64,000 bases of DNA from Bdellovibrionales bacterium (GTDB lineage: Bacteria > Bdellovibrionota > Bdellovibrionia > Bdellovibrionales > UBA1609), in assembly GCA_965197855.1 (NCBI GenBank), contig OZ240230.1, forward strand, positions 64,153-128,152, written 5' to 3'. A program made the translations under genes and the position numbers. The notes below the pieces were generated by a model. It ran no database searches. It was not told where the DNA came from and saw nothing but the letters and a program-made list of their open reading frames with translations. The stretch's first letter is position 1; each line of letters begins with the position of its first letter. Below, in pieces: positions 1 through 33,980 of this stretch.

Positions 1-1578
1 GGATAAAATATTTCCCCCACTTTTTGTTTTGAGCATATTGACAAAACTCATTAAGCTTGGAATTTGTAAACCCTCTGTCATATCCTTGCCTTCTAAAATA
101 TTTTTTTCACTGGCCATAGCTCCAACATTTTTAAAATCTTTTAATAGTCCCAGAAGGGGAAGGGCAGAGCCTACATTGACAAAGTTAGTTCCAAATCCAA
201 AGATAGATTCGTTGCCAGGCTGTTTCATTAAATCACCAAAGCTATGAGAGCTAAATCCTATACGAGGGAGTAGACCGCTTAATTCTCCTTTTTTATCTGT
301 TAAGAATTTATAGGTAGTAATATCCCAAGTAAAATTATCTTCTGCATTGAGATCCATAATAATGGTTTTAATAAAGACCTGATTTTTAGGAATATCAATT
401 TTATCGAGTATAGATTTTAAAATCTGATAGTGATGCCTTTTGGCTGTAATTAGAAGACTGTTTGTGTTCTTGTCATGAGAGACCTTGATGGTATCTTGCA
501 TGCCGCCGGAAGAGCCAAAAAGAGTGTGCAGTCCAAATCGTTGGATATTTCTTGGGGCATTTTTACCGGTTGTTTTTGGTGTTTGCAGAATACTATTTAA
601 AGTTTTCTCAATATCTGCGGCAATTCCATATTTGACATAATAGACAAAGATACCTCCAGCGGCCTGGGAGTCGAATTTAATATCCAGTTTTTTAATTAAA
701 TTTTTTACTTTAAGAATACCGTCGTTGGTTCCTGAAATAATGATGGAATTGGTTCTCTCATCGGGAATCAGAGCAGATACCCCGGATGTGTTGGCCTGTG
801 AGGAGGAAATGAGATTAGAGCCGGGACGCTGTCTAGTGGTGCTGGAAAACCTTCGTGAAGAAGTCCTGTTATTAATCAATAAATAAAGTTTATTTGTTAA
901 ATCCACAGCCGTGGCGTGCTTGATAGGCACAACTTCTAATTGAGTATGAACATTTGGAATATCCAGCTCTTTAATAATTTGGCTGACTTTTTCAATAGTG
1001 GCCCCATAGTCGCTGACAATAATGGTATTGGCTTCCTCATAAAATAGAGCTTTACTGTTTTTATCAGAGAGAAATTGTTTTAAATGTTTTTCTAAAACTT
1101 TAACATTGGCATGTTTTAGTTTAAAAATTTTTGTGATGTATTGATCAACGTCCGGAAAATATTCCCCTTTGTAAACTTGTACATTGTCTCTGGAAGCCTT
1201 GTCGGCGCTAATAACTTTCCAAAAGGCGCCGCTTCGAACTAAAGCATACCCGTTGATAGATAAGGCGGATAAAAAGGCCTGAAACGCTTCAGCGACAGTG
1301 ATGGGCGATGGCGCCACAATACTGATTTTACCTTTAATGTTTGGATCAATAATAAAATTAATCCCTGTCAACTTACTCATGGCTTTGACAATGTCAGCGA
1401 TGTTGGCATTCGGATAATCAAAACTTTTTATAACGTCGGGAAAATTTTCGGAATCAATGTCATCAATAAAGGCTTCATTGAGAGGGATGCCGGAGACAGC
1501 GCCTTTTTTTTGAATCACTTGTGCTAAAGAAAAAGGTGCAGATATCACGCAATATGCGATTATAAAAATCCATTTCAT
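1..1578 (-). CDS. gspD: Type II secretion secretin GspD, N-terminal 526 codons; the gene continues past the window start
   Basis: Absent from the ORF track because there is no stop in the window. My reverse-strand translation from the ATG at 1576-1578 reads MKWIFIIAYCVISAPFSLAQ (signal peptide). It continues with repeated secretin N-domain-like modules (ANIADIVKAMSKLTGINFIID, FKLKHANVKVLEKHLKQFL, VPIKHATAVDLTNKLYLL, YYVKYGIAADIEKTLNSIL) and the onset of the secretin core (NQVFIKTIIMDLN). The frame is open to base 1, and a gspC-like gene lies directly upstream. Confidence 0.8.
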   Translation of the reverse strand, partial: MKWIFIIAYCVISAPFSLAQVIQKKGAVSGIPLNEAFIDDIDSENFPDVIKSFDYPNANIADIVKAMSKLTGINFIIDPNIKGKISIVAPSPITVAEAFQAFLSALSINGYALVRSGAFWKVISADKASRDNVQVYKGEYFPDVDQYITKIFKLKHANVKVLEKHLKQFLSDKNSKALFYEEANTIIVSDYGATIEKVSQIIKELDIPNVHTQLEVVPIKHATAVDLTNKLYLLINNRTSSRRFSSTTRQRPGSNLISSSQANTSGVSALIPDERTNSIIISGTNDGILKVKNLIKKLDIKFDSQAAGGIFVYYVKYGIAADIEKTLNSILQTPKTTGKNAPRNIQRFGLHTLFGSSGGMQDTIKVSHDKNTNSLLITAKRHHYQILKSILDKIDIPKNQVFIKTIIMDLNAEDNFTWDITTYKFLTDKKGELSGLLPRIGFSSHSFGDLMKQPGNESIFGFGTNFVNVGSALPLLGLLKDFKNVGAMASEKNILEGKDMTEGLQIPSLMSFVNMLKTKSGGNILS

Positions 1579-1637
1579 AAAGACTTCCTTGTTATTATGT
1601 TTCTATCATAGTCAGTTTTCAAGATGAGAACAAGTCC

Positions 1638-2675
1638 CTATTGGACGGAGGCATCCTCATTGATATTATAGGAGATTTCACGGGCTTCTCCCTTTTCGTT
1701 TTCCACAACGACAGAGAATTGACTGTCGGCTCGAAATTGTTGAAAGAGTTTTTGGGCTTCCATGTTGTCATTGACCTTTTCACCATTGACGGAAACCAGC
1801 ATATCTCCTTTAAGGAAGCCTAAGCTTCCAAAAATACTTCCATCTTCAATCCATGTAAAAGTATGCCCTAATATTTTACCATCTGTGCCATATTGTGGTT
1901 CGACTCTAGCTTGTTGCAAGATGTCAGGAAGTTGCTGTAAATATTCATTAAGGGAGGAGCGAGCGACAGAATATCGATTATTGTCTAATTGGGAAATACC
2001 TTTGTGATTGGGCGTTTTTTTCTCTGGGGGTTTAATTGGTTCATCTTTGTTTGTTATTTTTGATTCTTTTGAAAAACTAATCAATGACTCTTCCTTGGGA
2101 ATTTCTAAATGTTCCAATTGGTTGTTGAGTAAATTAACAAATATAACTTTTCTTCTTTGCACCTGTGTGACTCTGGCTTTGTTGTCAATTGTATCTCCGA
2201 CAAAGTAAGAATTTGTCTCCCCGGAGGAAGTTACTTGAATGGAAGCCATGGATCTTTTGGGATTAAAATTTTCAATAGTTCCCAGTAATTTGAAAGGCAG
2301 TCCTGTTTTTTTGGATTCACCGATGATTGTGAGTTCTTGCTTTTTTTCCAGTTCTTTAAGGGGAGGGGGAATGGGACCGCTATGGAAAATATTTACTGTA
2401 TGTATAAAATTTGAAGAAGTAGATGAATTTTTTTTGAATGGAAGAGTTTTTGGTTTTTGAAGTGTAATGTCATTTTTTGGAAGCAAGGCAGACCTGATAA
2501 ATAAAATAACAAGGTCTGCTAGGGCTAAAGTAATTAAAAAAGTCAGTATCCAGCGGCTGTATTTAAAAAAAAAAGGAGGAATTTTTTTTAAAATAGTGTT
2601 GAAATCCATTTTTTGGAATTGTTTCCAAAGAAAGTTCTTAGATTGGTGTACAAAATTTAATATTAACTGTTTCAA
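1638..2675 (-). CDS. gspC: GspC-like T2SS inner-membrane component (N-terminal TM helix plus C-terminal PDZ-like domain)
   Basis: 345-aa ORF with TM segment WILTFLITLALADLVILFI and a C-terminal PDZ-like stretch FGSLGFLKGDMLVSVNGEKVNDNMEAQKLF. It sits immediately upstream of gspD on the same strand, the canonical gspC-gspD order. Confidence 0.55.
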   Translation of the reverse strand: MKQLILNFVHQSKNFLWKQFQKMDFNTILKKIPPFFFKYSRWILTFLITLALADLVILFIRSALLPKNDITLQKPKTLPFKKNSSTSSNFIHTVNIFHSGPIPPPLKELEKKQELTIIGESKKTGLPFKLLGTIENFNPKRSMASIQVTSSGETNSYFVGDTIDNKARVTQVQRRKVIFVNLLNNQLEHLEIPKEESLISFSKESKITNKDEPIKPPEKKTPNHKGISQLDNNRYSVARSSLNEYLQQLPDILQQARVEPQYGTDGKILGHTFTWIEDGSIFGSLGFLKGDMLVSVNGEKVNDNMEAQKLFQQFRADSQFSVVVENEKGEAREISYNINEDASVQ

Positions 2676-17420: not shown

Positions 17421-18596
17421 TTATTGAGATGAAGTTTTGGATTTTTCTAAATTGTAAATTTTCTCAAGAGTGGTATGCACAGCACTAGGTATGATCTTTT
17501 TTCCATTTACAAATAGAGCAGGAGTTCCTTGAATTTTTAGTTTTCGCCCTTCTGAAATTTGTTTGAAAACAGCTGTTGAGGTTTCCTTCGATTCTACACA
17601 GTGTTGGATATCCGGAACTTGCCATTGATTGAGTTGGTTTTGAATTTGTCTTTTTATCTCTTCAACATTTTGTCTGAGTTGAACCCAATTCTCTTGATGA
17701 GAAAAAATAAAGTTTTGCAGTTCGAGTTTTTTTGTTGTGGAACAAAAAACAGCTTTGGACAAATAACAGGAAGCGCTGTTGGATTCTTCTTTTTCCTGAC
17801 AGCCCTTTGGGTTTAATGGAAAGTGCATGTATTCCAAACGTATACCCGGATATGCTTTTTGAAATGTTTGTAAAACCTTATAAACGCGCTGGCAGTGAGG
17901 ACATAAAAAATCAACAAACTCAGTAACGGTTAAAATGGCTTGGGGGCGCTGGGGGCCGGAGGATAAGTAATTTGACTTTGAGGATGTGTATTGAATATCT
18001 GCTTGCCTCCAATCTATAAAATTAGACAGAGCCATGGATTTTTGAGCAGGGTAAAGTTGAAGACTCCAGCCATGCAGAAGTAGAGTTAAAACTCCTGTCG
18101 AAAGGGCAATGATACTCAATACTTGAATGTCAGGTTTAATTCCCACAAAAGTGACAAGTTGGGTTTTGGACAGTCCTCTCTTAAGGGGCCATAAAACCAG
18201 AAAAGATAAAATATAACAAACAGTGCAAAGAGGACAGAGAGTATTGAGGATTGCAATAGAAATCACAAGCATACATAGAGAGCTTAGTGCGGAGAGTACG
18301 GCGACTCTCCAAACCCACGAGGACCAAATGTTTTCCAGCCATCTCCATTGAAGTAAAATGAGGGTGATGAGGCAAAATGCATTGAGAGCTATGGCAAAGT
18401 GAGAGATAGGTATGCCAAAAATCTCTGAAAAAGCAGAGGTCAGGGCTTGGTCGCAGTTCCATGTAGACCCTATTTCACATAGATTAAGAAAAGAGGAATC
18501 TGCCTTAAGGGAATAGGAACGTAAAGATAGATAGAGCTGTACGGCTATAGAAAAGCCAAATAAAATAAGGCTTGGAATAAGAAATCTTTTTTTCAT
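17421..18596 (-). CDS. VKOR-family oxidoreductase fused to a thioredoxin/DsbA-like domain (periplasmic disulfide formation)
   Basis: 391 aa. The N-terminal half is polytopic, with a loop Cys pair (CEIGSTWNC) and the membrane CxxC (LCPLCTVC). The C-terminal half is soluble, with the thioredoxin-fold CxxC (FLCPHCQ). Confidence 0.7.
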   Translation of the reverse strand: MKKRFLIPSLILFGFSIAVQLYLSLRSYSLKADSSFLNLCEIGSTWNCDQALTSAFSEIFGIPISHFAIALNAFCLITLILLQWRWLENIWSSWVWRVAVLSALSSLCMLVISIAILNTLCPLCTVCYILSFLVLWPLKRGLSKTQLVTFVGIKPDIQVLSIIALSTGVLTLLLHGWSLQLYPAQKSMALSNFIDWRQADIQYTSSKSNYLSSGPQRPQAILTVTEFVDFLCPHCQRVYKVLQTFQKAYPGIRLEYMHFPLNPKGCQEKEESNSASCYLSKAVFCSTTKKLELQNFIFSHQENWVQLRQNVEEIKRQIQNQLNQWQVPDIQHCVESKETSTAVFKQISEGRKLKIQGTPALFVNGKKIIPSAVHTTLEKIYNLEKSKTSSQ

Positions 18597-22852: not shown

Positions 22853-23944
22853 ATGATATTTAGATTGGTTTTATTATTTTTGTTGTTGGGCTGTCAGCAT
22901 ATAGCTCAAAAGGAGCCGGGTTGGTTGAGAAAAGAGTGGATTGTCAATACTCTTTCTGAACCTTATTTAAAAACAAAAATCCTTCAAAAAACAAAATCCA
23001 TTTTAACTCAAAACCTGGTTGTACAAGGAGATTCTTTGTATGGAGTGCGGGCTTATAGCCGGGACAGCGGCAACCTTCAATGGTTTTTTGCTGTTACTGG
23101 AGGTGTTGAAGGGGGCTTGGCTGTTGATAAAGAACGTTTGGTTTTCGGAGGTTCGGACGGCTTCTTTTATTGTTTGGAACTTAAAACAGGTGTCTTACTT
23201 TGGAAGTTTTATACAGGCTCTGAAAATTTAGGCGAGCCTTCTGTTTCCAATGGTCATGTGTACTTTTTAACATCAAAAGAAAAAGTTTATGCCTTGAGCA
23301 TTCGAACTGGAAAGCTTATTTGGGTGCATCGCCCTCAAAATATTGCTCCTTTAAGTATTCGAGGGGTCAGTCGTCCTTTTGTGGATGCTCAAAGAGTTTA
23401 TGTGGGCTTTAGTGATGGCACTGTCTCTGCTTTAAATAGAAAAACTGGTCAGTGGATATGGAAAGTTTCTCTTGCTAAAGGTAAGGAGAGGTTTAAAGAT
23501 GTAGACGCCAGCCCTATTGTTAGAGGAAACCTGCTTTATGTGTCCAGTTTTGACGGGGGTCTTTTTTGTTTAAATAAAATAACAGGGAAGACAGTTTGGA
23601 GAAATAAAAAGGGAAGTTATTTTGCTCCTTCTATTGAGGGTAAGAGGTTATATTATGCTTCTACTAATTCTGAGATTTTAGCTCTCAACCGTTTGTCAGG
23701 AAAAATTCTTTGGAAGAAAAAAATTAAAGGCTTAGCTACAAGGCCTGTTATTTATCAGTCGTTTTTGTTATACGGGCTTTCTACAGGTCCTTTTCATATT
23801 ATTGATAAACAAGACGGCTCTTTGTCTTATAAGTTGAATATGTTTCGAGGTGTTTCTGCTGAGCCTGTTTTAGATTCTACTTTAAAAGAACTATACGTCA
23901 TGTCTATTGAGGCCTGGTTGTACAAGTTTGCTCTTCTATTTTAA
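22853..23944 (+). CDS. bamB: BamB-like outer-membrane assembly lipoprotein (PQQ-like beta-propeller)
   Basis: 363 aa with lipobox LLLGC-Q and repeated propeller blades with the G..Y.....G.L.W pattern (GKLIWVH, GQWIWKV, GKTVWRN, GKILWKK). Confidence 0.7.
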   Translation: MIFRLVLLFLLLGCQHIAQKEPGWLRKEWIVNTLSEPYLKTKILQKTKSILTQNLVVQGDSLYGVRAYSRDSGNLQWFFAVTGGVEGGLAVDKERLVFGGSDGFFYCLELKTGVLLWKFYTGSENLGEPSVSNGHVYFLTSKEKVYALSIRTGKLIWVHRPQNIAPLSIRGVSRPFVDAQRVYVGFSDGTVSALNRKTGQWIWKVSLAKGKERFKDVDASPIVRGNLLYVSSFDGGLFCLNKITGKTVWRNKKGSYFAPSIEGKRLYYASTNSEILALNRLSGKILWKKKIKGLATRPVIYQSFLLYGLSTGPFHIIDKQDGSLSYKLNMFRGVSAEPVLDSTLKELYVMSIEAWLYKFALLF

Positions 23945-23953
23945 TTGTACTGT

Positions 23954-24006
23954 ATTCCTGCTTTCGCATCACACGTCATCCCCGCGAAGGCGGGGATCCA
24001 GTCATA
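23954..24006. repeat. Family A repeat, short composite (A4), just after bamB and upstream of the Cys-rich operon
   Basis: attcctgctttcgca + acacgtcatccccgcgaaggcggggatccagtc. Confidence 0.8.
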
Positions 24007-24250: not shown

Positions 24251-26098
24251 ATGGATTTTAAAGATACGAGAAGGTATATGTTTCGATTCAGAAGTTACAT
24301 AGGCTCCAAAAAAGGAAGCCTTGTTTTGTCTTTAGTTGCTTCAGCTACTGTAGCGGCAACTATTGTAGCCACTCATCAGGTGGCGCAACGTTTTGCCAGT
24401 GGAGCTGTAGGAGCTTTCAATCAACAGCAAGCTTATGTACTCGCCCAAAAATCTCTGGCTGTCGCGGGCCTCATGGTCAATAGAAACGTCATTCTTTGCT
24501 CGAATATACCAAAGGGGGCGGGAGGTAGAGCAGTTGGCTGTAATTGGAAAGAACCTTTAGCGGATGATAGTTTAGCAAGAGAACTTTATAATTCTTTAAA
24601 ACTAGATACTACATGGTTTAATGTGGGGAATAATATTGATAATAATAACCATGATGCTTATGCTCAATATTATCTAACACTTAAAAATCCTAAAGAGAAC
24701 TACCTTGGTTCTGTTTTTAAAAATGCGGAAGTGACCTGGGCTTTAAGGAGTTTAAAAGATACGAACCTTCGTTCTATTTCCGGGGCTTTCAGCAAAGGGT
24801 ATACTTGTCGAAATGTAAATACTTTTGATGTGATTGAGGAAGGTTATTGTGACTTAATGGATGAAGATAGATCAGATGAAGAAAAGTTCTCGGGCATGTT
24901 GAGCAACCTCGATAGCCATCTTTTAAGTGATGAAAATAAAAAATGTAGAACAGTAGACACCACTAGTGATAATAAGATTGATAAAGATGATGATGTTAAC
25001 GATTCAAGGAATGATGATAGTGTTTGCGATTATTATGCGCATTCGGATGGGGACACTGCGATTGTGTTTATCAGTGTCAAGGTGCCTTATCAAGTGTCAG
25101 ATGCTGAAGAAGAGGGATCCAAAAATTTAATTGTAAATGCGGCCATTCGAAGACCTATGTCTATTATTAAAACTCAGATTAAAGAGGATTCTTCTATGTG
25201 TCCTGTTAGCTGTATAATAGCCAAGCGCACGAATATGGGCTCTTCAAATGTTGATTTTCCGGAGTGTGCAGGTTTTGCTTCCGGCAATCAAAATGGAGAA
25301 CAATATTTTTCGGATAATATTCATACTGTTGAAACCAAACTGAAGCTTAAAAATTATGGACCGGGTGTTTTATATGGCATTAGCTTATTAAAAGAGGATA
25401 TTGATCCCAGAACAGGTCTTCTTTTAGGAAGAAGTATGGTGAGTTTCCAAGATTCAGATCCTTCTTCTCTTGCAGATACTCCTTTAGAACCGGCTCATTT
25501 AACAACAAACCCACCGGATGTTGAAGAGGGGGTGAGAGTGCTTGCACACCATACTCCTTGTTATTCTTCCAACTTTTACAAACCAAATCTTCAACGTATA
25601 ACCTGTGATTGTGAGCTGAATCCTCCTGATCCTCCTGATCCCACCACAGGTTCCAAAAATACTGCAAATGGAGTGATTTGCATGAAGGGAACATCCGTTT
25701 GTGCCGGCAAAAATATTTTTGTCAGTAATGTCCCAGGTGTCTTGCAGGATGATTCTACAACGCAGGACGCTCGCAACAGTTTAAGTGGTTGTTTTCATGC
25801 TCCGGGTACATTGGAAGATCTTCCAACTCTTTCCAATGCTGTAGTTACTGCATTTGAAAAACCATGTATAGACGCAACAGACTGTCAGTTTACTCGTATT
25901 GATAATGATCAGATTAGCACTACAAAAGAATCATGGTGTGGAAATGATTATGTCGGAAATGACCCTTCTACAAAACCTACAGGAAGAGAACTTCGCCCTA
26001 CAGACGAAACACAAGTGGCGTTTCCTGACCCTGTGGAATCGACGGTTTTTTCAGCGGCTAACCAAGCTGATATACCTTTAACTACACCTAGCCCTTAA
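24251..26098 (+). CDS. Large secreted/anchored Cys-containing protein with a PilX_N-like (minor-pilin-like) N-terminus; operon gene 1
   Basis: 615-aa ORF. The N-terminus KKGSLVLSLVASATVAATIVATHQVAQRF...QQQAYVLAQKSLAVAG resembles the hydrophobic helix plus A..AE.G pattern of PilX/GspK-type N-termini, but it lacks Glu+5. An AAGG lies 3-4 nt upstream of the ATG at 24278 (MFRFRSY), which is the more likely start. The rest is D/N/S/T-rich with many Cys and a PPDPPDP tract. Confidence 0.6.
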   Translation: MDFKDTRRYMFRFRSYIGSKKGSLVLSLVASATVAATIVATHQVAQRFASGAVGAFNQQQAYVLAQKSLAVAGLMVNRNVILCSNIPKGAGGRAVGCNWKEPLADDSLARELYNSLKLDTTWFNVGNNIDNNNHDAYAQYYLTLKNPKENYLGSVFKNAEVTWALRSLKDTNLRSISGAFSKGYTCRNVNTFDVIEEGYCDLMDEDRSDEEKFSGMLSNLDSHLLSDENKKCRTVDTTSDNKIDKDDDVNDSRNDDSVCDYYAHSDGDTAIVFISVKVPYQVSDAEEEGSKNLIVNAAIRRPMSIIKTQIKEDSSMCPVSCIIAKRTNMGSSNVDFPECAGFASGNQNGEQYFSDNIHTVETKLKLKNYGPGVLYGISLLKEDIDPRTGLLLGRSMVSFQDSDPSSLADTPLEPAHLTTNPPDVEEGVRVLAHHTPCYSSNFYKPNLQRITCDCELNPPDPPDPTTGSKNTANGVICMKGTSVCAGKNIFVSNVPGVLQDDSTTQDARNSLSGCFHAPGTLEDLPTLSNAVVTAFEKPCIDATDCQFTRIDNDQISTTKESWCGNDYVGNDPSTKPTGRELRPTDETQVAFPDPVESTVFSAANQADIPLTTPSP

Positions 26099-26116: not shown

Positions 26117-29100
26117 ATGAAAGAGATTTTATGGATGAAAAAGATTAGAAATATTTTTATAATTTTTTTATTTTTGTTTGAGTTTTCTGTATTTTCAGTA
26201 CCTGGAATTAATTCGACCGCAATTTGTCGAGCTATATTCAATAGAGTCGGTATGTCATGCAATCAAATAAGTTATACATTTGATCCACACTTGAAATGTC
26301 TATGTGATGGGAATGAGGTAAATAATAACCCCACTTCTTCCTGTCCGTCAGGATCAACTTATGTGAAAAGACCCATTCCTATTACTTCTTCTTATAGTAT
26401 TAGTTGTGATTTCAAATCCTATCATAGGGGTAAGGACACTCATGAATCTGCATATCCATCATCTACGGATAGAAGTGAACCCCTACGTAGTTGTAAGGCT
26501 AATTTGAATGTAGAAAAAAGTCTTTTATCAAACTCAATATATTGTGGCCAACATACAGGAACTAATGTGCCTTTAACGCTTCAGACAGTTTGTCCTTATA
26601 ATGATTTACAACAATGTAAAGATGAGTTGATAAATATGATTGAGGGGCGTGTGACATTCAAACCTGGTGAAGTAGTAAGCAGGAATAGTAGTTGCTGTAA
26701 AAAGCAATGGAATCACTGTACTTTTGCAACTAATTATTATCGGAATAATGGATCCCTTGTGGATAATATTTGTACTAAAAAACTGTATGATAGAACAACG
26801 AACCTTCCAGTACATGATTTATTTATTCCTAATAATAAGCTAGATCGTATTGTATTAGCTTCAGAGAACGGGCCGTTTGCAGATATGCAATGTATTTCAG
26901 ATAATATTAAATATGAAGATATGTGCGTATGTAATAATGGTAATTATGAATTTGAGTTAGGGCAAGACTTTACTTGTGAATGCTGTGGGGGAGTGGATAG
27001 GGATCCAAATACTGGAAATTGTCTTCCTCCTCCTCCTGGATCTCCTTGTTGTAATATTCCTGTTGGTACATCAAATTTTATAGGAACGGAGATTAATCCC
27101 CCAATTACAGCTCCTGGATCCTGTCGTTGTAAGTGTCCTAATGCCGGTATGGAACAGACTAGTTTTCTAGTTTCAAATACTGCAACAGCCTGTCCGACTA
27201 CCCCTCCAGCAGAGTGTATCATTAATGATAAATGTCCTGATGAGCCTAATTGGAACACCTCTGATCCAACGAATTCACCCATACATCCTTTTGTGACATC
27301 AAAGCCAGGACAAATAAATAATGCAGATAGGTGTAAAAATATTGGTGGATTATTTGTAAATACAGGAGTGGGATTTTGTGAGATGGATGCAATTTGTGAA
27401 CCAGATGTTGATGATATCGCATGCTCTTCTGGGACAGAAGAAACTATTCATGGTAAATGTCAAGAGGTAGGAGTAATGCAGAAAGTATGTCTGTATGGGA
27501 GTCACATTACTCCAGGTGATGGTAATAGTAACGATGACTGCCCGGATGGCTGGATAGAGGAAAAGGTTTATGGTCAACATACAGTATGTATGAGCATAGA
27601 GAGTGCTATAATACGTGGTACAATAGCCATGGTTATTACTCCTCCTGCTTCCTCTGAGATAACAGCTCCTCCTTGTCAGGGCAGGCTTATCAGATTTCCT
27701 TATGTAAAGTTAGATACTGCTAATCCTTACCCACCCTGCAGTCCCGGTAAAGAGAAGATAACACTAGATCCCCTATATTCTTCACTTGTGGTAGCATCAA
27801 GGGAAGTATGTAGTGATCCTATTTCTAGCAATGGAATTCCTAATATTATACCGGGTTCATATATTTGTAATATAGGAGCTCCGAGTTCTCTGAATGATAG
27901 CTGTGAGTGTAAAACTTCAAAACCTGGGCAGGTTTGTCCTGCCACACACGATAGAACAAGTGACAGTATGGGATTAGGCAGTTGTGATTGTCTTGATTCC
28001 ACTTGGACTAACAACTCAGGTACTTGCTCTAAAACTCCTTCTGGCTCTGCTGGTCTTACTTTATATACTAACTATTGGCAGAGTACAGGATCGAAAATAA
28101 CCCCGGCCAGTCTCAATCCTATATATGCACACATGCCAGAACCTCCAGGTCCTGCTACATATGCAGAGGCTATAGCAGATAATTGGGGTTGTTTTTCGGT
28201 CCCACCTTCTGATGTAATGGGGCTACCAGGATTACCTTGGATTGGGAATCCTCAACCAGCTTATACCTGTTGGAAAGATACAAAGTCGTGTCCGGATGGA
28301 GGGACATACAATGTCGGCCCACCAGAAGTGTGCGAGATGCCTTGTACTCAGCAAAATGATCCGATTAATTGCAGATGTGTGAAAGACATTACCAGCTGTG
28401 AATGTGACACAGGTGGAGGTTGGTTCGCTCATGGCAGTAAATGTAGGAAACAAGCTAATAATCCTTCTCCTAGATTATGTACTTGTGAGTGTTATTCGCC
28501 TTCGCAAGACCTAAATATGAATTTTTCCCCTGGAGATTTGCTCACGAAGAGGATGTATGAAGCAATCAGCAATGACATTCTAGCAAATCCAACAAACCCA
28601 ACGATTTGTACTGAGGATACCTCAGGTGGGGACTGTGATCCAGTGGATTCTTGTTGTCATCAAGGGGTATGTCATGCTTCCTGTCCCGTTATTACACCTG
28701 ATAACGTGTGTTGCAAAAATTGCCTTGATGGAAGTCCAATACCAGCACCTCCAGGTGGTTGTTGCCCCAATGGAACGGCTATTGCTGATTTAAAGAATTG
28801 CTCATCAGGAGTTCATATTGGGGGCAATCCTATGGGGATTGATATAGCCTTTGGCTCCAATAATTCCGCCTCTATTTATTCAGTTTATTCTACAGGCTCT
28901 ATGGACAGACCGGATTATATTTGTTGGATGAATGATCCTAATGGAAGCTCTACCAGAGTGCAAAAAAGAGACCTGCTTTGCCCTCCTCAAGAGGACTGTG
29001 GTGGAGGGGCTAGAGATGTCAGTACACAACAATGGTGTCAGTGCCAGGGTTTGAATGCTTCCGATGAATTATTTAATGTAGATAATACCTACTGTGAATA

Positions 29101-29227
29101 CGCGGCTAGAGATCCTATGAGGTTTGAAGATGGGATTATCAAAGGGGATCTGCCTTCTTCAAGACAAAATGATAAATATGAAACAGATATTAGAATTTTC
29201 AAACAAACCCCTATTATCACACCCTAG
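26117..29227 (+). CDS. Extremely cysteine-rich secreted protein (1036 aa), unknown family; operon gene 2
   Basis: Signal peptide-like N-terminus IFIIFLFLFEFSVFSVPG. My manual count gives about 78 Cys (7-8 percent), many in CxC, CC or CxCxC clusters (KCLCDG, DMCVCNNG, FTCECCGG, GSCRCKCP, SCECK, SCDCL, NCRCV, SCECD, LCTCEC, WCQCQG). It is P/G/T/S/N-rich. The SD-like ggagaaagga lies ahead of the ATG, 18 nt after the gene 1 stop. Confidence 0.75.
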   Translation: MKEILWMKKIRNIFIIFLFLFEFSVFSVPGINSTAICRAIFNRVGMSCNQISYTFDPHLKCLCDGNEVNNNPTSSCPSGSTYVKRPIPITSSYSISCDFKSYHRGKDTHESAYPSSTDRSEPLRSCKANLNVEKSLLSNSIYCGQHTGTNVPLTLQTVCPYNDLQQCKDELINMIEGRVTFKPGEVVSRNSSCCKKQWNHCTFATNYYRNNGSLVDNICTKKLYDRTTNLPVHDLFIPNNKLDRIVLASENGPFADMQCISDNIKYEDMCVCNNGNYEFELGQDFTCECCGGVDRDPNTGNCLPPPPGSPCCNIPVGTSNFIGTEINPPITAPGSCRCKCPNAGMEQTSFLVSNTATACPTTPPAECIINDKCPDEPNWNTSDPTNSPIHPFVTSKPGQINNADRCKNIGGLFVNTGVGFCEMDAICEPDVDDIACSSGTEETIHGKCQEVGVMQKVCLYGSHITPGDGNSNDDCPDGWIEEKVYGQHTVCMSIESAIIRGTIAMVITPPASSEITAPPCQGRLIRFPYVKLDTANPYPPCSPGKEKITLDPLYSSLVVASREVCSDPISSNGIPNIIPGSYICNIGAPSSLNDSCECKTSKPGQVCPATHDRTSDSMGLGSCDCLDSTWTNNSGTCSKTPSGSAGLTLYTNYWQSTGSKITPASLNPIYAHMPEPPGPATYAEAIADNWGCFSVPPSDVMGLPGLPWIGNPQPAYTCWKDTKSCPDGGTYNVGPPEVCEMPCTQQNDPINCRCVKDITSCECDTGGGWFAHGSKCRKQANNPSPRLCTCECYSPSQDLNMNFSPGDLLTKRMYEAISNDILANPTNPTICTEDTSGGDCDPVDSCCHQGVCHASCPVITPDNVCCKNCLDGSPIPAPPGGCCPNGTAIADLKNCSSGVHIGGNPMGIDIAFGSNNSASIYSVYSTGSMDRPDYICWMNDPNGSSTRVQKRDLLCPPQEDCGGGARDVSTQQWCQCQGLNASDELFNVDNTYCEYAARDPMRFEDGIIKGDLPSSRQNDKYETDIRIFKQTPIITP

Positions 29228-29236
29228 GAGAGCATT

Positions 29237-32200
29237 TTGAATTATTTTAAAAGATCAAATCGTGGTTTCTCCTTAATAGGCTCTCTTCTTGGGTTTTCTC
29301 TTTTAGGATTATCCACAGTAGGGCTTGCCACATATATGGGAAGTTTTGAACAGGTAAAAGTTACTTATTCTCGTCAATCCAATGTTAACTTTATGCATTC
29401 CGAGCTTTTGGGAAGTATGGGAAAAATTATAACGATGACTAAAACAGAGGTCACAAGTCCTAATGCTACAAATTCTCATTTAAAAAAAGAGTTTGGTTTG
29501 TGTGCAGTGGTAAAACAAGATAATCAATACGACTCTGTTAAAGATAAAGCCATTTGTGCCATTACACTGACAGGCTCTGCTATTGTTTCTCCTTCTGGAG
29601 CAAATGCCTATAATGAAGATGATCGTTGGAGTTACTTTATTCAAGAAGGTAAAAACTGGCAGGTCTCTTCAGGGAATTGTACAAATGGCAGTAATGGTTT
29701 TGTAGGGGACTTTAGTGAAGATGAATTTAATAAATGTGTGAAGTATATTGGGAAAACTCAGACAGATGATATTTTTGCTCGCCTTAGTATGGAGCCACAA
29801 AGGCTTCCCTCTTTTAACAAAATTGACAATTCAGATAGTATTCCTGTGGATGAATTGGTTTTTAAATTACATTCTGTTATTTCTGTTCCTCGTGAGTTAG
29901 AAGTTGGCAATATAGTTTTTTCATTAAGTAAAAGTGAAAAATATCTATGGAGTACAGAGGTCTTGGACTGTCATATTTGTGATAGTGGTCAATGTAAGCT
30001 AGCTCGATTTTCTACAGCCTCTCAAGGTACAGCCGCAAGACATAGTCGAATCTGTTATCACTCTCCTTATAAAATGAAAGAGAAAAAAGATGCTTTGGAA
30101 ATTATTGTGGAAAAAATTCCTCCAGAATTTGAAGAAAGTGGAAATCGAATTGTTGCAAGTACGACTCAACAGGATTACTCTTCTTCATGCCGCTCCAATT
30201 TATTTCGATGTGGAAATGCTGTAGATGTAAAAGATTTTGATCCGGCTCTTAAGTTTCGCTTTTTATTAAATTATGACCAGCCGGAAGATTCTTATATTAA
30301 TAAAATGGGTTTAAAAATTACTGATGGCTCGGATGACAAAGAGTATGGAACTTTATTTGTATCTGCAGATCAACAAGCTCGTGTAGGTCGAACTCAAGGT
30401 GGTGTTGACAGTGAGTTTGTTGATAAGGATTCAACAACAGCTAATAAACACTTTTGGCCTTTAAGAGCAGGTACAAATGAGATTACATCTTTTATGGCGG
30501 ACCAGGATTCTTCTGATTCAATTTGTACAGATATTTGTTCCGGCTCCAGCCCTTCTTACTATCCGGAATTAACTGTTGAGTATGGAGGCTCTCAGTGTGA
30601 TAGCGGTAACTGTACGGAATCGCTGCTATCTGCTTCATCTCTTAAAATTGCATGCTTTCAATGTAATATGAAAAGTTGTCATCGCTATGGTATAAAAACT
30701 CATACGGGTGTAGATTCTAGTAATAACTATGTCGCTAGAAGTAGTGAACCTCTAGATGGAATTGTTCCTGAATGTCTTATTGAAGATAATGTGAGTGTAA
30801 GTGCGGATACAACTTTAATTACAAGTGGTGTGACTGATGCTGTAAATAATAAATGTTTACAAACAACTAGCGGAAATAATTTAAAGGCTGTTACTTGTAC
30901 CAATACCTCTGGAGGTGGAGACCCTGTATTTATACAAGGTACGACTAAATCAGCTTGTTTTTTAGAAGGGCAGACTAAAATTTTGGAGGGAGGCTATACT
31001 GGCGGTTTGGATGCTCGAAATAACTGTCTACAGGTCTTATATGAAGAACAGCTTATTGGACAAGGTACAGATGGAGTTTGGAGAGAGGGTATTTTGCCTA
31101 ATATAGCTATAGCTTATAATATTCTTCCAGAAGGGGATGGGACAGATCGAGGTGTCAAAGAAGTTTTGGAAGATCAGGAGTTTGGAGGACTCGATCCAAG
31201 CTCAGGTGGAACATATACTTTTAATAATTATGCCAGATTTTCTACATTTTTTGGAGATCATACAGATGTTACTGAGCCAGATGTATTTGTGACTTTTCAA
31301 AGGGATGCTTCCGGAATGTTTCATTCAGGCTGGCATCGTTTCTTAGGGGTTGCAAATAGTGGTACAACTGCAGAAAGAGAGCGCTGGGCTTTTTTCTATA
31401 GAGAGCCTTTTAACAGTATTAATTTTCATGATGTAGGTGGTTTAACAGTATTAAATAATAATGATGGTAGTAAAAATACCGGTGAATTACCTAAAGGTAC
31501 CACCAGAAAAGAATTTTTAGGAAGAGCTCGGCCCTCTCGTCCTGTTTATATTAAAATGGGCAATGATTTTCATGCGGATTATCCAGGTTTAAAGCAATTA
31601 AACGATAATCCTCCGAATCATTATCTGGCTTTAATTCATCACTTGACTTTTAAAGGGATTCGTCCTGTTAAAACTCCTGCAAAAAATAATTATCCTTATC
31701 TATGTAGAAATATAAAAGCCACAACTTATAAAGAGGCTTTTGTGATCACTGTGGCTGAAGGAAGAGATATAAATAATGGGTATCAGAATTGCCGTAATTT
31801 AAACCCTCCTCCTCCTCCTCCTCCTCTAGAGCCTAGTGAAGACTGGTATTTTATTCCTCCGGATTCCAGAGAACTTTGGGTGGCGGCCTTGCAGGCGGTG
31901 GCTCCAAATGCCCTTCGCTATCCTTTTCCTAATCCTTTTAATTTTGCAGATGGTATTCCTTTTTGGAGAGAGCGAAAAAGCGGCGATATGGGTTATGATG
32001 CTAAAAAACGTCAATGGGAGCTTAGCTACAGTTATGCAGATATGTCTTCTGATGATTATTTGTTGTCTGAAAAAAATGATCATCAGTTTTTATTTAAAAA
32101 CAGTGTGGGCAGTCCATCACCTAAACCTTCTGGAACTTTAGCCAGACCTGCCACAGCTTGGATTGGAGGGCTTGCTCCAATTGCGCTAACAGGAGGTAAT

Positions 32201-33823
32201 GCCGGGGTCAGCTGGAGCTGGAAGCCGGATTGGCTGAAGATATTAGGAAATTCTTTTACTCTTGGGTATGATCCTTTGGAGGATACTGCACTTTCACTGC
32301 TTTTTAATGATAGCTTAACTGCTGCTCTAATAGATACTCTTATTGTTGAACTTGAAGATGACACTAACTTTGATAATATCGGTGTTCTTAACTCTAATGG
32401 TCGTGTGATGAGTTTTAAGTCTTTAAGACAGCCTAATAATTTAGGTGAGTTTCAAGATAAGGTTACTAAATTATGTAGATACGATGAAAATGTACAGCAA
32501 TTGGATTTTCATAGAGCTTTAATTATAACAGGAAAGGGTACTAATTGGCCTTCTGGAAATGACTGTAGTGGTTTATCTTCTTCCAATTCAGAAAGCTTTT
32601 TAGCAGATGATCTAGACAGTATTTATTTTGAAATACCTTCCACTCCGGGTAACAGCAACTTGAAAAATCTAGCAGGAGATGATTTTGTAGAAGTTCGACA
32701 GGGGATTCGTACTTTAATTCCACTTTTGGCCTATAAGAAGCAAGGAGCTATGCATGTCCATAATACAGATAAGTTTTGTCGGGCTTGGAAGAGGGAGAAA
32801 AAAAGAAGAGCTGTTGGAAATTGTATTATTGAAAATTATAATGCCGGTACTCTTTCTAAAGGGGGTGTGAATCATGGTTTGCCAGTGACTCAAACTGTCA
32901 GGACTCAGGCTGTATGCCATCCATTAAGTAAAAATTGTGATATTGCTCCTAGTTCTTTCCAAACTCAGCTTACTACCAAACAAGCTGAGCTTTCAACTGC
33001 TCAGTCGCAGTTGGCTACAGCAAACAATAATTTAGCCTCAGCAACCACTACTTGTAATCAAATTTGTCCTGCTTGTGTTACTGTTCCTGACACTGCATTC
33101 ACTTCGTGCCAGCAAGCTTGTTGGAGCTGTCTCAGTGGATGCAGTGGTGATCCCGATCAAGCTGTTTGTGAGAGTGTTTGTAGAGGCGCGATGGTCAACT
33201 GCAGAACTTCGTGTGGCTGTCCAACACCACCCTGTGGTACTACAACAGATTGTTCAGTACGAGATGCTTGTGTAGCTTCTAGAAATGCCGCTTGCAATAG
33301 TAGACCTGGAATACAAGTTCAAATAACATCTCTTACAGATATAATAGATGAATTAGAAAACAATGTAATTCCTTGTATGCAGGCAAATATAGGAAGTATC
33401 ACAAAGGCAAGCTGTATGGCTAATCTCGATAATGTTAATTCACATGCCACAGTTTACTCTCCAGCTTTTGCTTCTTGTCCACAGGCTTCGGCTTTGTCGA
33501 TTGATTTTAAGATATCACATTTAGGTAGTGCGAGCGATAGTAGATGCTGGCGTTTAGATGATTTAAAGCCGAAGTATGAATTTAGCTTTAATGATGGAAC
33601 CTCCAATTTAACTGGTAGAGTTGGTGTATTGGGAGATAGCCAGGCGCTTACAGACTGGGATCACGATCGTAACTGTGGTACAGCATCTACTTCTCTATAT
33701 CCATTACCTGCCGCTTGTGACAACTACTATACTGACTTGATTAATTTACATAATAATCTTTGTAATGATGGGATAGATTATGGTAATCAAACTTGTGAAC
33801 ATAATTATACTGGACCTTTATAA
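29237..33823 (+). CDS. Giant (1528 aa) protein with a prepilin-like N-terminal helix, a long unknown body, a coiled-coil segment and a Cys-rich C-terminus; operon gene 3
   Basis: The TTG start at 29237 is preceded by AGGAG (29226-29230) at 6-nt spacing. That AGGAG overlaps the gene 2 stop (29225-29227). The N-terminus KRSNRG-FSLIGSLLGFSLLGLSTVGLATYM resembles the type IV pilin/pseudopilin class III signal (G|F-x-L-I-x), with Gly instead of Glu at +5. There is a Pro7 run, a C-terminal coiled coil (TQLTTKQAELSTAQSQLATANNNLASA), then a dense Cys region (CNQICPACV...CQQACWSCLSGCSG...CESVCRGAMVNCRTSCGCPTPPCG). Confidence 0.75.
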   Translation: MNYFKRSNRGFSLIGSLLGFSLLGLSTVGLATYMGSFEQVKVTYSRQSNVNFMHSELLGSMGKIITMTKTEVTSPNATNSHLKKEFGLCAVVKQDNQYDSVKDKAICAITLTGSAIVSPSGANAYNEDDRWSYFIQEGKNWQVSSGNCTNGSNGFVGDFSEDEFNKCVKYIGKTQTDDIFARLSMEPQRLPSFNKIDNSDSIPVDELVFKLHSVISVPRELEVGNIVFSLSKSEKYLWSTEVLDCHICDSGQCKLARFSTASQGTAARHSRICYHSPYKMKEKKDALEIIVEKIPPEFEESGNRIVASTTQQDYSSSCRSNLFRCGNAVDVKDFDPALKFRFLLNYDQPEDSYINKMGLKITDGSDDKEYGTLFVSADQQARVGRTQGGVDSEFVDKDSTTANKHFWPLRAGTNEITSFMADQDSSDSICTDICSGSSPSYYPELTVEYGGSQCDSGNCTESLLSASSLKIACFQCNMKSCHRYGIKTHTGVDSSNNYVARSSEPLDGIVPECLIEDNVSVSADTTLITSGVTDAVNNKCLQTTSGNNLKAVTCTNTSGGGDPVFIQGTTKSACFLEGQTKILEGGYTGGLDARNNCLQVLYEEQLIGQGTDGVWREGILPNIAIAYNILPEGDGTDRGVKEVLEDQEFGGLDPSSGGTYTFNNYARFSTFFGDHTDVTEPDVFVTFQRDASGMFHSGWHRFLGVANSGTTAERERWAFFYREPFNSINFHDVGGLTVLNNNDGSKNTGELPKGTTRKEFLGRARPSRPVYIKMGNDFHADYPGLKQLNDNPPNHYLALIHHLTFKGIRPVKTPAKNNYPYLCRNIKATTYKEAFVITVAEGRDINNGYQNCRNLNPPPPPPPLEPSEDWYFIPPDSRELWVAALQAVAPNALRYPFPNPFNFADGIPFWRERKSGDMGYDAKKRQWELSYSYADMSSDDYLLSEKNDHQFLFKNSVGSPSPKPSGTLARPATAWIGGLAPIALTGGNAGVSWSWKPDWLKILGNSFTLGYDPLEDTALSLLFNDSLTAALIDTLIVELEDDTNFDNIGVLNSNGRVMSFKSLRQPNNLGEFQDKVTKLCRYDENVQQLDFHRALIITGKGTNWPSGNDCSGLSSSNSESFLADDLDSIYFEIPSTPGNSNLKNLAGDDFVEVRQGIRTLIPLLAYKKQGAMHVHNTDKFCRAWKREKKRRAVGNCIIENYNAGTLSKGGVNHGLPVTQTVRTQAVCHPLSKNCDIAPSSFQTQLTTKQAELSTAQSQLATANNNLASATTTCNQICPACVTVPDTAFTSCQQACWSCLSGCSGDPDQAVCESVCRGAMVNCRTSCGCPTPPCGTTTDCSVRDACVASRNAACNSRPGIQVQITSLTDIIDELENNVIPCMQANIGSITKASCMANLDNVNSHATVYSPAFASCPQASALSIDFKISHLGSASDSRCWRLDDLKPKYEFSFNDGTSNLTGRVGVLGDSQALTDWDHDRNCGTASTSLYPLPAACDNYYTDLINLHNNLCNDGIDYGNQTCEHNYTGPL
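31805..31825 (+). repeat. (CCT)7 trinucleotide repeat encoding Pro7 inside operon gene 3
   Basis: Read directly as cct x7 at 31805-31825, in frame with the 29237 start (peptide NPPPPPPPLEP). Confidence 0.9.
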
Positions 33824-33842: not shown

Positions 33843-33980
33843 ATGTCATCTCTGTAAAAACACAGAACGCCAGAAACTTTGGAATTCTTTATAAGCCTTC
33901 GCTCAGAAGTTTCGGTTGGCATCTGCACCACTTCGTCATCCTTACAATACATGTCATCCCTGCGAGAGCAGGGATCCAGT
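33843..33980 (-). repeat. Family A repeat, long composite (A5), between the Cys-rich operon and PBP1A
   Basis: gtcatctctgtaaaaacacaga ... gccttcgctcagaagtttcggttggcatctgcacc ... gtcatcc ... gtcatccctgcgagagcagggatccagt. Confidence 0.8.

Follow-up and report, generated by a model that had tools for sequence, protein, structure and literature searches.

The window, the whole stretch of 64,000 nucleotides of a Bdellovibrionales bacterium that was analysed, carries a three-gene cassette on the forward strand, whose genes we call A, B and C. Type II secretion system (T2SS) genes lie at the left end of the window, and two copies of a palindrome are found outside the cassette.

1..2675, reverse strand: type II secretion genes, gspC (1638-2675) and the 5' part of gspD (1-1578)
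23978..23997, forward strand: REP-like palindrome ATCCCCGCGAAGGCGGGGAT, intergenic, upstream of gene A
24251..26098, forward strand: gene A, first in the cassette, 615 aa, 18 Cys, N-terminus ...GSKKG/SLVLSLVASATVAATIVATHQ
26117..29227, forward strand: gene B, middle gene, 1,036 aa, Sec-type signal peptide, 78 Cys (7.5%), no known domain
29237..33823, forward strand: gene C, 1,528 aa, TTG start
33956..33975, forward strand: second copy of the palindrome, downstream of gene C, with compensated stem changes (CCCTGC...GCAGGG)

The A-B-C cassette and its genomic context

The N-terminus of the gene A product is highly conserved and pilin-like (KKG/S...), without Glu5. Gene C is the third gene of the cassette, and at all loci examined the C-like gene has an A-like gene ahead of it; gene B was found in L001, L002, L003 and L008 and is missing from L007. 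C is always co-encoded with the pilin-like A and, in this clade, usually also with the Sec-secreted, Cys-rich B. The A-(B)-C cassette keeps its make-up although its gene neighbourhood changes from locus to locus, as in a relocating unit. The idea that A and C are paralogs was rejected because of the hhalign probability of 0.2%. A scan of the cassette for promoters and terminators gave counts equal to the shuffled expectation.

Linkage to a pil cluster was detected at a single locus of eight contexts, L009, where the gene C relative P0078 lies 4.4 kb downstream of pilB-pilT-pilC-pilS-pilR, flanked by an A-like gene upstream and a canonical pilin of 345 aa downstream. This A-like gene and gene A were matched by hhalign with a probability of 98.1% (E 1.3e-13). 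In the window and at L001, L002, L003, L007, L008, L011 and L012, the cassette was not linked to filament machinery; a pilus, pseudopilin or prepilin-peptidase gene adjoins it neither in the window nor at five related loci.

The match of gspC to the T2SSC model (30 bits) is above the cut-off of 27, and three Secretin_N domains and the GspD N0 domain were detected in gspD. A T2SS normally comes with pseudopilins and a prepilin peptidase, so gspC and gspD suggest that this genome has a T2SS and, with it, probably a prepilin peptidase. A VKOR-DsbA fusion is also encoded within the window.

Start codon and gene call of gene C

The gene C open reading frame is real, and its 19 full-length homologs with 28-63% identity (the close family) show that it is more than a chance frame. 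The translation signals were read directly from the DNA.

29226..29230, forward strand: Shine-Dalgarno AGGAG, overlapping the TAG stop (29225-29227) of gene B
29237..29239, forward strand: TTG start codon of gene C, the sole start-like codon, matching the ATG of an ortholog

The preliminary description had proposed the TTG start with AGGAG 6 nt upstream, and both were confirmed. Upstream of codon 34, as far as the in-frame stop at 29225, TTG is the only ATG, GTG or TTG codon. It aligns with the ATG of the ortholog in L003, both being followed by AAT TAT, and the L003 ortholog has the identical TAGGAG context 5' of its ATG. A conserved RGFS block lies downstream of the TTG. The accompanying statement that no in-frame ATG is nearby holds up to codon 34, but this codon is an ATG (29336), from which the public gene call P0001 starts (1,495 aa, beginning MGSFEQ). 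The public call from Met34 is 33 codons too late, and the prepilin-like signal is thereby hidden. Several gene C homologs are truncated at the N-terminus in the same way; members of this superfamily are easily mis-annotated, the late-start call of gene C being an example.

Body and variable parts of protein C

The following parts were distinguished in protein C.

29237..31336, forward strand: N-terminal module of ~700 aa, common to the wider superfamily of pilin-like proteins of ~0.9-1.2 kaa, beta-rich, with invariant Cys pairs
31805..31825, forward strand: Pro7 tract (aa 857-863), a lineage-specific insertion missing in nearly all homologs
31847..31966, forward strand: second most conserved block (aa 871-910, YFIPPDSRELWVAALQAVAPNALRYPFPNPFNFADGIPFW), conservation 0.87
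32939..33412, forward strand: hypervariable region (aa 1235-1392), lowest conservation in protein C (0.18-0.28)
33413..33823, forward strand: conserved C-terminal domain (aa 1393-1528 and stop), invariant Cys1393, 1437, 1509 and 1520

Protein C contains 54 Cys, and 26 of the 54 are at least 90% conserved, which suggests an extracytoplasmic body. The block at aa 871-910 is presumably the functional core of the clade-specific C-terminal half. The hypervariable region consists of a helix (aa ~1237-1273), a low-confidence Cys-dense insert (~1274-1339) and a return helix (~1340-1387); in the AF2 model two long helices (pLDDT ~76-87) flank a segment with pLDDT below 50, so that the model looks like a helical hairpin. 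Among homologs the hypervariable region is 36-216 aa long and has 2-23 Cys.

Several features of the preliminary description had to be re-read in this light. The Pro7 tract is present but is not conserved in homologs. A helix exists where a Q/A/T/L coiled coil had been noted, but its Q/A/T/L stretch lies at aa ~1241-1272 and not at 1290-1320, and it is not conserved. The Cys-dense C-terminal part does contain the CxxC, CxxxC and CGC patterns (2, 5 and 1 in the Cys cluster), but it covers ~130 aa (aa 1273-1400, 20 Cys) and not ~200, and it is not conserved either. The coiled coil with a Cys cap is not a conserved domain; this part of the protein is its least conserved, indel-rich hypervariable insert.

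The claim of more than 1200 residues without recognisable motifs was borne out, as the Pfam and NCBIfam scan gave no match anywhere in proteins C, A and B. Among the 19 close C-family members, the Pfam search returned only a spurious NADH-G_4Fe-4S_3 match (two members, E 0.023). The whole-family profile had zero matches among PDB sequences at E<=10. Two AF2 models of protein C (aa 1-1200 and aa 330-1528, pLDDT 65-66) were searched with Foldseek against PDB; nothing was found at E<=0.001 (best E 0.038 and 0.29), and no pilin was detected. The sub-threshold matches are generic beta-sandwiches and long helical hairpins (colicin R-domain, dynein stalk). The PilY1 beta-propeller (PF05567) has no Pfam match in A, B or C and does not appear among the Foldseek matches of C. 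The preliminary description had suggested checking the body for a PilY1-like beta-propeller or a beta-helix; neither was found in the predicted models, and no PDB fold matched significantly. By eye, aa 819-1000 (...C..LG..W.FIPP...ELW.AAL...AWIGGL...W.W.PDW) appeared C-type-lectin-like; this candidate was rejected because no member has a Lectin_C match and no CTLD was found by Foldseek.

The N-terminus of protein C

29237..29266, forward strand: basic leader, aa 1-10 (MNYFKRSNRG), ending at invariant Gly10, the putative prepilin-peptidase site G/F
29267..29434, forward strand: alpha1-like helix, aa 11-66, with a hydrophobic part at aa ~10-32 (FSLIGSLLGFSLLGLSTVGLATY) and then an amphipathic part

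The N-terminus of protein C has the layout of a prepilin, a short basic leader ending in Gly, with K/R before the Gly, followed by about 20 hydrophobic residues (MNYFKRSNRG/FSLIGSLLGFSLLGLSTVGLATY). Gly10 is invariant across the 19 close sequences and aligns with the G of the canonical G/FSLVE relatives. The hydrophobic segment of ~23 residues is the only one in protein C (a single Kyte-Doolittle peak). The most conserved 30-aa window of the close-family alignment is aa 11-40 (0.89), which is unlike a disposable Sec signal. The helix of protein C is rich in small residues (G15, G19, G24, G29, S16, S21, S26), and position +5 is Gly15, not Glu; the close clade has G, S or A there throughout.

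Protein C scored 14.1 bits (E 0.035) with the Pfam N_methyl model PF07963, below the cut-off of 21.2, and had no match to TIGR02532 (IV_pilin_GFxxxE) at E<=0.01. In the close family, PF07963 matched only 3 of the 19 members even at E<=1. The N-terminus profile searched against PDB sequences gave chance DARPin and MreD matches only, and no pilins. A pilin fold would have an alpha1 helix of ~53 residues lying on an antiparallel beta-sheet. In the AF2 model residues 25-66 are helical and beta strands follow at 165-258, with pLDDT below 50 for residues 1-48 and an overall mean of 65.

The superfamily and its prepilin-bearing relatives

An exhaustive profile search of 1.84 billion representatives (threshold E<=1e-3, clusters at 50% identity) showed that gene C belongs to a superfamily with 156 or more cluster representatives, most of them 900-1,850 aa long. 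Most of the 156 matches align to profile positions ~1-700 from their own N-termini. In the databases searched the superfamily is unnamed, and it has neither a Pfam or NCBIfam model nor a structural relative.

Many distant members carry the canonical KG/FSLVE prepilin motif and are aligned from their first residues. P0051 was matched with E 1.5e-40 (profile 6-723 on residues 5-697) and P0078 with E 2.9e-30 (profile 6-608 on residues 21-627). P0078 passes the Pfam N_methyl model (24.0 bits, cut-off 21.2), and P0078, P0051 and P0053 pass TIGR02532 (18.9-20.2 bits, cut-off 16.3); P0051 additionally resembles PilV (E 2e-8), below the cut-off of the PilV model. Glu is found at +5 in 46 of the 118 scorable N-termini. 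Gly at -1 is invariant over the superfamily alignment, with K/R before it, and this holds even in clades without Glu5; the bodies are only 26-30% identical across the clades that keep Gly -1 and K/R. At E<=1e-3, an HMM built solely from the N-terminus matched 70 of the 139 distant N-termini, 20 of them with G-x4-E, and none of the shuffled controls.

These N-terminus-aligned matches show common descent of protein C with bona fide prepilin-signal proteins. The N-terminal ~66 residues of protein C descend from a type IV prepilin leader and alpha1 helix; the prepilin (class III) descent follows from homology and not from the motif itself. The class III-signal-like N-terminus of the preliminary description therefore stands as to descent, through the threshold-passing distant homologs, but protein C itself fails the prepilin models and lacks Glu5.

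Discussion

A probable tip complex derived from minor pilins

We lean towards the explanation that the gene C product is a giant, degenerate type IV minor-pilin-like protein working in an adhesive tip complex. In its favour are the TTG start and the strongly conserved N-terminus, the homology to prepilins, the pil-linked relative P0078, the conserved cassette, the T2SS genes and the VKOR-DsbA fusion of the window, the conserved Cys and the KilLMN analogue. More generally, protein C and its partners probably make up an adhesive complex at a tip or on the surface. According to this tip-complex model, preprotein C would insert into the inner membrane in the N-in/C-out orientation, and the prepilin peptidase normally required by the T2SS would remove the basic leader after Gly10. 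The hydrophobic helix of C would bundle with the equally conserved helix of A, and A and C, joined by B, would form a disulfide-stabilised complex, possibly with the contribution of the VKOR-DsbA fusion. The complex would cap a type IV filament, either a pilus or a T2SS-type pseudopilus, as its tip-most part, and would prime its assembly. The tip-most subunits GspK and PilX lack Glu5, and by this likeness the loss of Glu5 in C fits a tip-most subunit. The ~1,450-residue body of C would be the adhesive head, and the hypervariable helical hairpin with its Cys-rich tip (aa 1235-1392) may be the exposed ligand- or host-facing element.

Several observations speak against the tip complex. Protein C (~165 kDa) together with A and B is very large for passage through a secretin. 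Protein C stays below the prepilin cut-offs and has Gly at +5. Machinery genes adjoining the cassette are absent from the window and the five related loci, and only the single locus L009 provides the link to a pil cluster. Neither the PDB-sequence profile nor Foldseek detected a pilin, and two genome-reduced sponge Bdellovibrionota MAGs, which may not belong to this lineage, were reported without type IV pili (PMC9944714).

Part of the same evidence suits another explanation, which we regard as possible, with some doubt: protein C would be a former minor pilin that is not a filament subunit, its uncleaved Gly/Ser-rich helix serving as a permanent inner-membrane anchor. The helix would, in the same tentative scheme, pair with the helix of A and hold a disulfide-rich periplasmic or envelope-spanning A-B-C complex, independently of pilus machinery. 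The lost Glu5 and the below-threshold prepilin scores agree with it, as does the hyper-conserved small-residue helix, shared with A, which fits a specific transmembrane helix-helix interface. The cassette never adjoins pilus genes in the close clade, and the sponge Bdellovibrionota report points in the same direction (PMC9944714). However, the invariant Gly at -1 with K/R in both A and C is explained by a peptidase site and not by a plain anchor. The T2SS in the genome, and hence probably a prepilin peptidase, also argues against an uncleaved helix, and the absence of Glu5 is equally a property of tip-most pseudopilins such as GspK (textbook).

It is very unlikely that A and C are odd pseudopilin-like proteins capping, or presented by, the T2SS pseudopilus rather than a type IVa pilus. 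In its favour, the window shows no type IV filament genes other than gspC and gspD, and Glu5 is missing from A and C as it is from GspK (textbook). Against it, 21 kb with unrelated housekeeping genes separate the cassette from gspC, and the sole machinery-linked relative adjoins pilB/pilT/pilC/pilS/pilR, which are type IVa and not T2SS genes. A role in the T2SS would in any case be a sub-case of the tip complex, having the same mechanism with another filament.

That protein C is an ordinary secreted or outer-surface protein, with a coincidentally prepilin-like long Sec signal that signal peptidase I would remove, for instance behind GLA32, is highly improbable: a small-x-small motif (G-L-A) follows the hydrophobic core and protein C exceeds the threshold of no prepilin model, but no part of the family is as conserved as the hydrophobic segment while cleaved signal peptides normally evolve fast, this segment is ~23 residues long, the homology to proteins with threshold-passing canonical prepilin motifs is collinear, and one prepilin-bearing relative adjoins a pil cluster.

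Comparison with known systems

GspK/PilX-type minor pilins without Glu5 are located at the filament tip, and the Sec-exported non-pilin adhesin PilY1 is co-encoded with them and displayed; the complex primes assembly. From general knowledge of GspK/PilX and PilY1, protein B would be the analogue of PilY1. Sequence or fold similarity of the cassette proteins to GspK, PilX or the PilY1 propeller was not detected by Pfam, NCBIfam, PDB profile or Foldseek searches. The cassette differs from the GspK/PilX arrangement in having two Glu5-less pilin-like proteins and not one, and in sizes 3-8 times larger.

In architecture, the closest analogue of A-B-C is the KilLMN tip complex of Myxococcus. The KilL/KilM/KilN 'Tip' complexes of Myxococcus xanthus belong to the Kil (Tad-like) pilus and are encoded by dispersed, paralogous three-gene sets, with many predicted disulfides (PMC12075869). 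KilN is large, and its distal domain, without PDB homolog, consists of two long alpha-helices and a beta scaffold (PMC12075869). KilLMN and A-B-C are alike in being small clusters of pilin-like genes away from the machinery, disulfide-rich and with one large subunit; the distal parts of KilLMN vary between paralogs, which resembles the variable region of C. KilLMN is a predicted tip complex with a base formed by an alpha1N helix bundle, and the likeness of A-B-C to it is architectural only. KilL, KilM and KilN are homologs of TadE, TadF and TadG, whereas A, B and C have no Tad-family match: the Tad-family Pfam and NCBIfam models gave none for A, B and C at E<=0.01, nor for the 19 C-family members at E<=0.1. 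In contrast to KilLMN, the machinery-linked relative of C adjoins type IVa pilB/T/C/S/R and not tad genes, B carries a Sec signal and not a pilin signal, and C has 1,528 aa and no Glu5.

Modular type IV pilins (S. sanguinis PilB/PilC, ETEC CofB, Thermus ComZ) resemble C in combining an N-terminal pilin module with a bulky grafted functional body, which is presumed to be tip-exposed; such minor pilins act as adhesins. In the InterPro census of modular pilins, made via the IPR012902 motif, the most extreme multi-domain example singled out has 860 aa (PMC8179133). The size of ~1500 aa, described initially as far outside the usual range for pilins, does exceed this extreme, although the superfamily has many members of 0.9-1.85 kaa. 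C also differs from the modular pilins in that its 1,528-aa protein has a body without a recognisable domain. A motif-based census would probably miss C since it scores below the PF07963 and TIGR02532 cut-offs.

Apparent host association and significance

The largest superfamily members were found in Bdellovibrionales genomes of 1.3-2 Mb with ankyrin and LRR genes. Ankyrin and LRR genes in such small genomes suggest host association, and the small-genome Bdellovibrionales MAGs with the cassette appear to be host-associated. Since genomes of this size retain a gene set of ~9.5 kb, it likely has a central part in contact with the host or prey. The literature on the lineage provided general context on reduced sponge Bdellovibrionota only.

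A bolder proposal, which we think unlikely, is that A-B-C is a previously unrecognised 'spearhead' derived from type IV filaments, a disulfide-locked complex of ~300 kDa with two Glu5-less pilin helices. It would be the main device for attachment to, or entry into, the host or prey in this genome-reduced lineage, possibly after loss of the pilus, and specificity would reside in the hairpin tip of C (36-216 aa, 2-23 Cys), evolving under diversifying selection.

The binding partners of a type IV filament are set by its minor pilins and tip adhesins. The results describe an unnamed superfamily whose pilin-like members have 0.9-1.85 kaa and are each encoded as a pair with another pilin-like gene. 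With it, the 'modular pilin / adaptable tip' concept also covers far larger proteins and Glu5-less signals. The family provides a testable handle on the attachment of uncultured relatives of predatory bacteria to their partners.

The A-B-C cassette and the start of gene C

Gene C, encoding the giant pilin-like protein, stands third and last in a set of closely packed genes, and no Pfam or NCBIfam match was detected for A, B or C.

The cassette and other genes of the window
1-2675, - strand: gspC (T2SSC + PDZ) and the start of gspD (first 526 codons of the secretin, N0 + 3 Secretin_N)
17421-18596, - strand: VKOR-DsbA/thioredoxin fusion, 391 aa, disulfide-bond-forming system
24251-26098: gene A, 615 aa
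26117-29227: gene B, 1,036 aa, 7.5% Cys, Sec-type signal
29237-33823, + strand: gene C, 1,528 aa
36109-39567, + strand: 1,152-aa protein, TTG start, reprolysin/metzincin-like protease domain and about 11 leucine-rich repeats
46164-48374, + strand: 736-aa K/E/Q-rich protein, apparently coiled coil nearly throughout, no Pfam match

The C reading frame has 1,528 open codons from a TTG, as the preliminary description proposed. The Shine-Dalgarno AGGAG (29226-29230) lies 6 bases 5' of the TTG and shares bases with the TAG that ends gene B. From the in-frame stop at 29225 up to codon 34, the TTG is the only ATG, GTG or TTG codon. The identical database protein, P0001, has 1,495 aa and starts MGSFEQ, so the public gene call took the ATG at codon 34; the earlier statement that no in-frame ATG lies nearby holds up to that codon only. 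The block (K/R)GFS[ILV][ILV][GS]SLLGFSLLGLSTVGLATYMGSFE, 5' of the codon-34 Met, is kept in 19 aligned homologs, and the ortholog in locus L003 has an ATG at the position of the TTG, with the same TAGGAG before it and the same AAT TAT codons after it. The TTG is thus the correct start, and the public annotation is 33 codons too short. Late public starts, removing the pilin-like leader or helix, are frequent in the family (P0001, P0021, P0038, P0041, P0042, P0050, P0165); the Met34 start of P0001 misses window 29237-29335, and several homologs start within the hydrophobic helix.

The order A-B-C is repeated in four related loci (L001, L002, L003, L008), whose flanking genes differ from locus to locus, while L007 has A and C without B. 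The A N-terminus is strongly conserved (...KKG/SLVLSLVASGAVAATIVATHQ; a slash here and below follows the -1 Gly), and hhalign detected no homology between A and C. A GC-rich palindrome of ~30 bp, ACACGTCATCCCCGCGAAGGCGGGGATCC, has three intergenic copies (23978-23997, 33956-33975, 45100-45119; 0 expected), two of which bracket the cassette. The copy downstream of C carries compensated stem changes (CCCTGC...GCAGGG), suggesting a conserved hairpin, possibly a REP-like element or terminator.

Several neighbours were additionally observed. The VKOR-DsbA/thioredoxin fusion would supply disulfide bonds to A, B and C, which are all very rich in Cys. The presumed T2SS operon continues beyond the left edge of the window, and the 64 kb revealed no gene for a pilus component, a pseudopilin or a prepilin peptidase. 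DUF8196 genes (~210 aa, Hjc/UPF0102-like nuclease fold) adjoin the cassette in multiple copies in three related genomes (L002 15445-19352; L003 1-1440 and 14841-19545; L008 15277-15909), a possible sign that the neighbourhood is mobile or prone to rearrangement. In three contexts that otherwise differ (window 22853-23944; L009 15835-17106; L011 20091-21383), a PQQ_2/BamB-like beta-propeller gene is found within a few kb of A and C, perhaps by chance, perhaps as a trace of a former linkage. The 1,152-aa protein looks like a eukaryote-like host-interaction candidate, and the stretch 46164-48374 stands out by its composition (AT skew +0.32, GC 0.31).

Prepilin descent of the C N-terminus

Taken alone, the C N-terminus is weak evidence for a pilin. 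It scores 14.1 bits against Pfam N_methyl (cut-off 21.2), a model matched even at E<=1 by only 3 of 19 close-family members; TIGR02532 does not match C, the +5 residue is Gly, without Glu, and the profile of the N-terminus found no pilin among PDB sequences.

The decisive result on the pilin question came when the C-family profile was run exhaustively against 1.84 billion representatives: 156 proteins were detected at E<=1e-3 (127 at E<=1e-10). About ten are long close relatives; beside them stands a wide range of proteins of 900-1,200 aa, whose match to profile positions ~1-700 starts at their own first residues. The N-termini of this range grade from an intermediate clade (KRG/FTLVGN or RG/SLIGG) to the textbook prepilin signals of the more distant majority (KKG/FSLVEVLVA, QRG/FSLVEIIMA, QKG/LSLIEVLVS). 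Glu is at +5 in 46 of 118 scorable N-termini; the Gly at -1 and the basic residue before it stay invariant even in members without Glu5. P0078 exceeds the Pfam N_methyl cut-off (24.0 bits), and P0078, P0051 and P0053 all exceed that of TIGR02532; residues 7-88 of P0051 resemble PilV (E 2e-8, under the PilV model cut-off). An HMM built from the first 69 close-family residues matched 70 of 139 distant N-termini at E<=1e-3, 20 of these with G-x4-E, and no shuffled controls. By this homology, the C N-terminus is recognizable as a degenerate descendant of the prepilin signal plus alpha1 helix; the central idea of the preliminary description was largely right, by a route that it could not see.

Association with pilus genes and the A-C pair

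P0078 is located on a 103-kb contig, 4.4 kb downstream of a run of genes identified by Pfam domains and order as pilB, pilT, pilC, pilS and pilR.

The pil gene run near P0078
pilB: MshEN + T2SSE
pilT: T2SSE
pilC: T2SSF
pilS: 6TM_PilS/HisKA
pilR: sigma54 activator

The gene directly before P0078 (428 aa, KNDKG/SLIIGAAIV) is a homolog of A by hhalign (probability 98.1%, E 1.3e-13), and after P0078 follows a 345-aa canonical pilin (EKG/FSLIELAVV, TIGR02532 25.2 bits). In two other genomes A-like and C-like genes form pairs that lie apart from pilus genes and are duplicated in tandem, two pairs per locus (L011 8374-19434; L012 3121-13618), in the ~1.1-kaa intermediate clade; the L011 C copies are 77% identical. 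The arrangement suggests paralog expansion resembling the Myxococcus Tip clusters. From these pairs and the P0078 locus, A-C is the conserved unit and B an addition of the long-C clade.

Conservation and predicted structure

The close family comprises 20 database proteins (1,071-1,684 aa, the 1,071-aa P0012 being a fragment), none with a Pfam domain on record; a Bdellovibrionales MAG supplies the sole source-given name, 'hypothetical protein'. Scanning one genome per GTDB species detected three loci, all in 'Bdellovibrionales bacterium' MAGs, one on a 1.28-Mb record labelled chromosome 1; family members also occur on contigs of 1.4, 1.6 and 2.07 Mb. These sizes, with ankyrin and LRR genes near the loci, suggest a genome-reduced, host-associated lineage.

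The hydrophobic N-terminal helix (aa 11-40) is the most conserved 30-residue window of the C alignment (0.89), followed by aa 871-910 (0.87), and aa 10-32 is the only segment hydrophobic enough to span a membrane. Least conserved is aa 1251-1390 (0.18-0.28), where a coiled coil and Cys-dense cap had been described. The helix exists, at aa 1241-1272 instead of 1290-1320; the Cys-dense stretch is real (20 of 54 Cys), but covers about 130 residues (aa 1273-1400), not 200, and neither is in a conserved part. Between the invariant Cys1234 and Cys1393, homologs have 36-216 residues and 2-23 Cys; 26 of the 54 Cys of C are at least 90% conserved. The Pro7 tract, also noted earlier, is present (aa 857-863) but is an insertion missing from almost all homologs.

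Two AlphaFold2 models on the 20-sequence alignment (aa 1-1200, pLDDT 65.3; aa 330-1528, pLDDT 65.9) placed a long helix at 25-66, after a hydrophobic segment of low confidence. The body is predicted to be mostly beta structure, and towards the C-terminus two long helices modelled with confidence (aa ~1237-1273 and ~1340-1387) flank the low-confidence Cys-dense insert. Foldseek against the PDB returned nothing at E<=0.001 for either model. The best matches of the C-terminal model were long antiparallel helical hairpins, for example the colicin E3 receptor-binding domain (probability 0.84, E 0.77), which only suggests a stalk-like hairpin. No recognisable pilin fold is seen in these low-quality models, nor the PilY1-like propeller or beta-helix body that had been named as possibilities.

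Proposed function and comparison with known systems

C is of prepilin descent, with a ~700-aa module common to the superfamily and an obligatory A partner; its body is extracytoplasmic and disulfide-rich, with a hypervariable distal insert. We propose that the prepilin peptidase normally required by the T2SS of this genome would cleave C and A after their invariant Gly, that their hyper-conserved helices would bundle together, and that C, A and B may constitute a complex that sits at the tip of a type IV filament or primes it, the variable helical hairpin of C being a putative exposed, specificity-determining element. The tip-most GspK and PilX are without Glu5, and the Glu5 loss in C fits such a position.

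The main alternative, possible though rather unlikely, is that in this reduced lineage the C helix is now a permanent membrane anchor of a filament-independent envelope complex. The failed prepilin motif tests, the small residues in which the helix is rich and the report of two reduced sponge Bdellovibrionota MAGs without type IV pili (PMC9944714) favour it, while the invariant Gly at -1 argues against it. A plain Sec signal is very improbable because the hydrophobic segment is the most conserved part of C.

The closest published analogue of A-B-C, by its organization, is the Myxococcus KilLMN tip complex, with three co-encoded minor pilins, paralogous clusters scattered in the genome, many predicted disulfides and a heterotrimer on an alpha1N bundle; the distal domain of its large subunit has no PDB homolog and combines two long helices with a beta scaffold (PMC12075869). 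The three-gene set, dispersed paralogous clusters, disulfides and large subunit with two long helices, beta structure and no PDB match are alike, and the heterotrimer on a helix bundle would be. However, KilLMN are TadE/F/G homologs, and A, B and C match no Tad model, leaving membership of the KilLMN family unsupported. The 'modular pilin' concept also fits C, which at 1,528 aa compares with 860 residues for the most extreme multi-domain case of a census based on the IPR012902 motif (PMC8179133). Since C is under the cut-offs of PF07963 and TIGR02532, models related to IPR012902, such a census would probably miss it.

Taken together, the superfamily of C is sizeable, absent from the searched databases and often mis-started by gene callers, and C is a new, very large, degenerate modular minor pilin or tip-complex subunit, of a kind already known.
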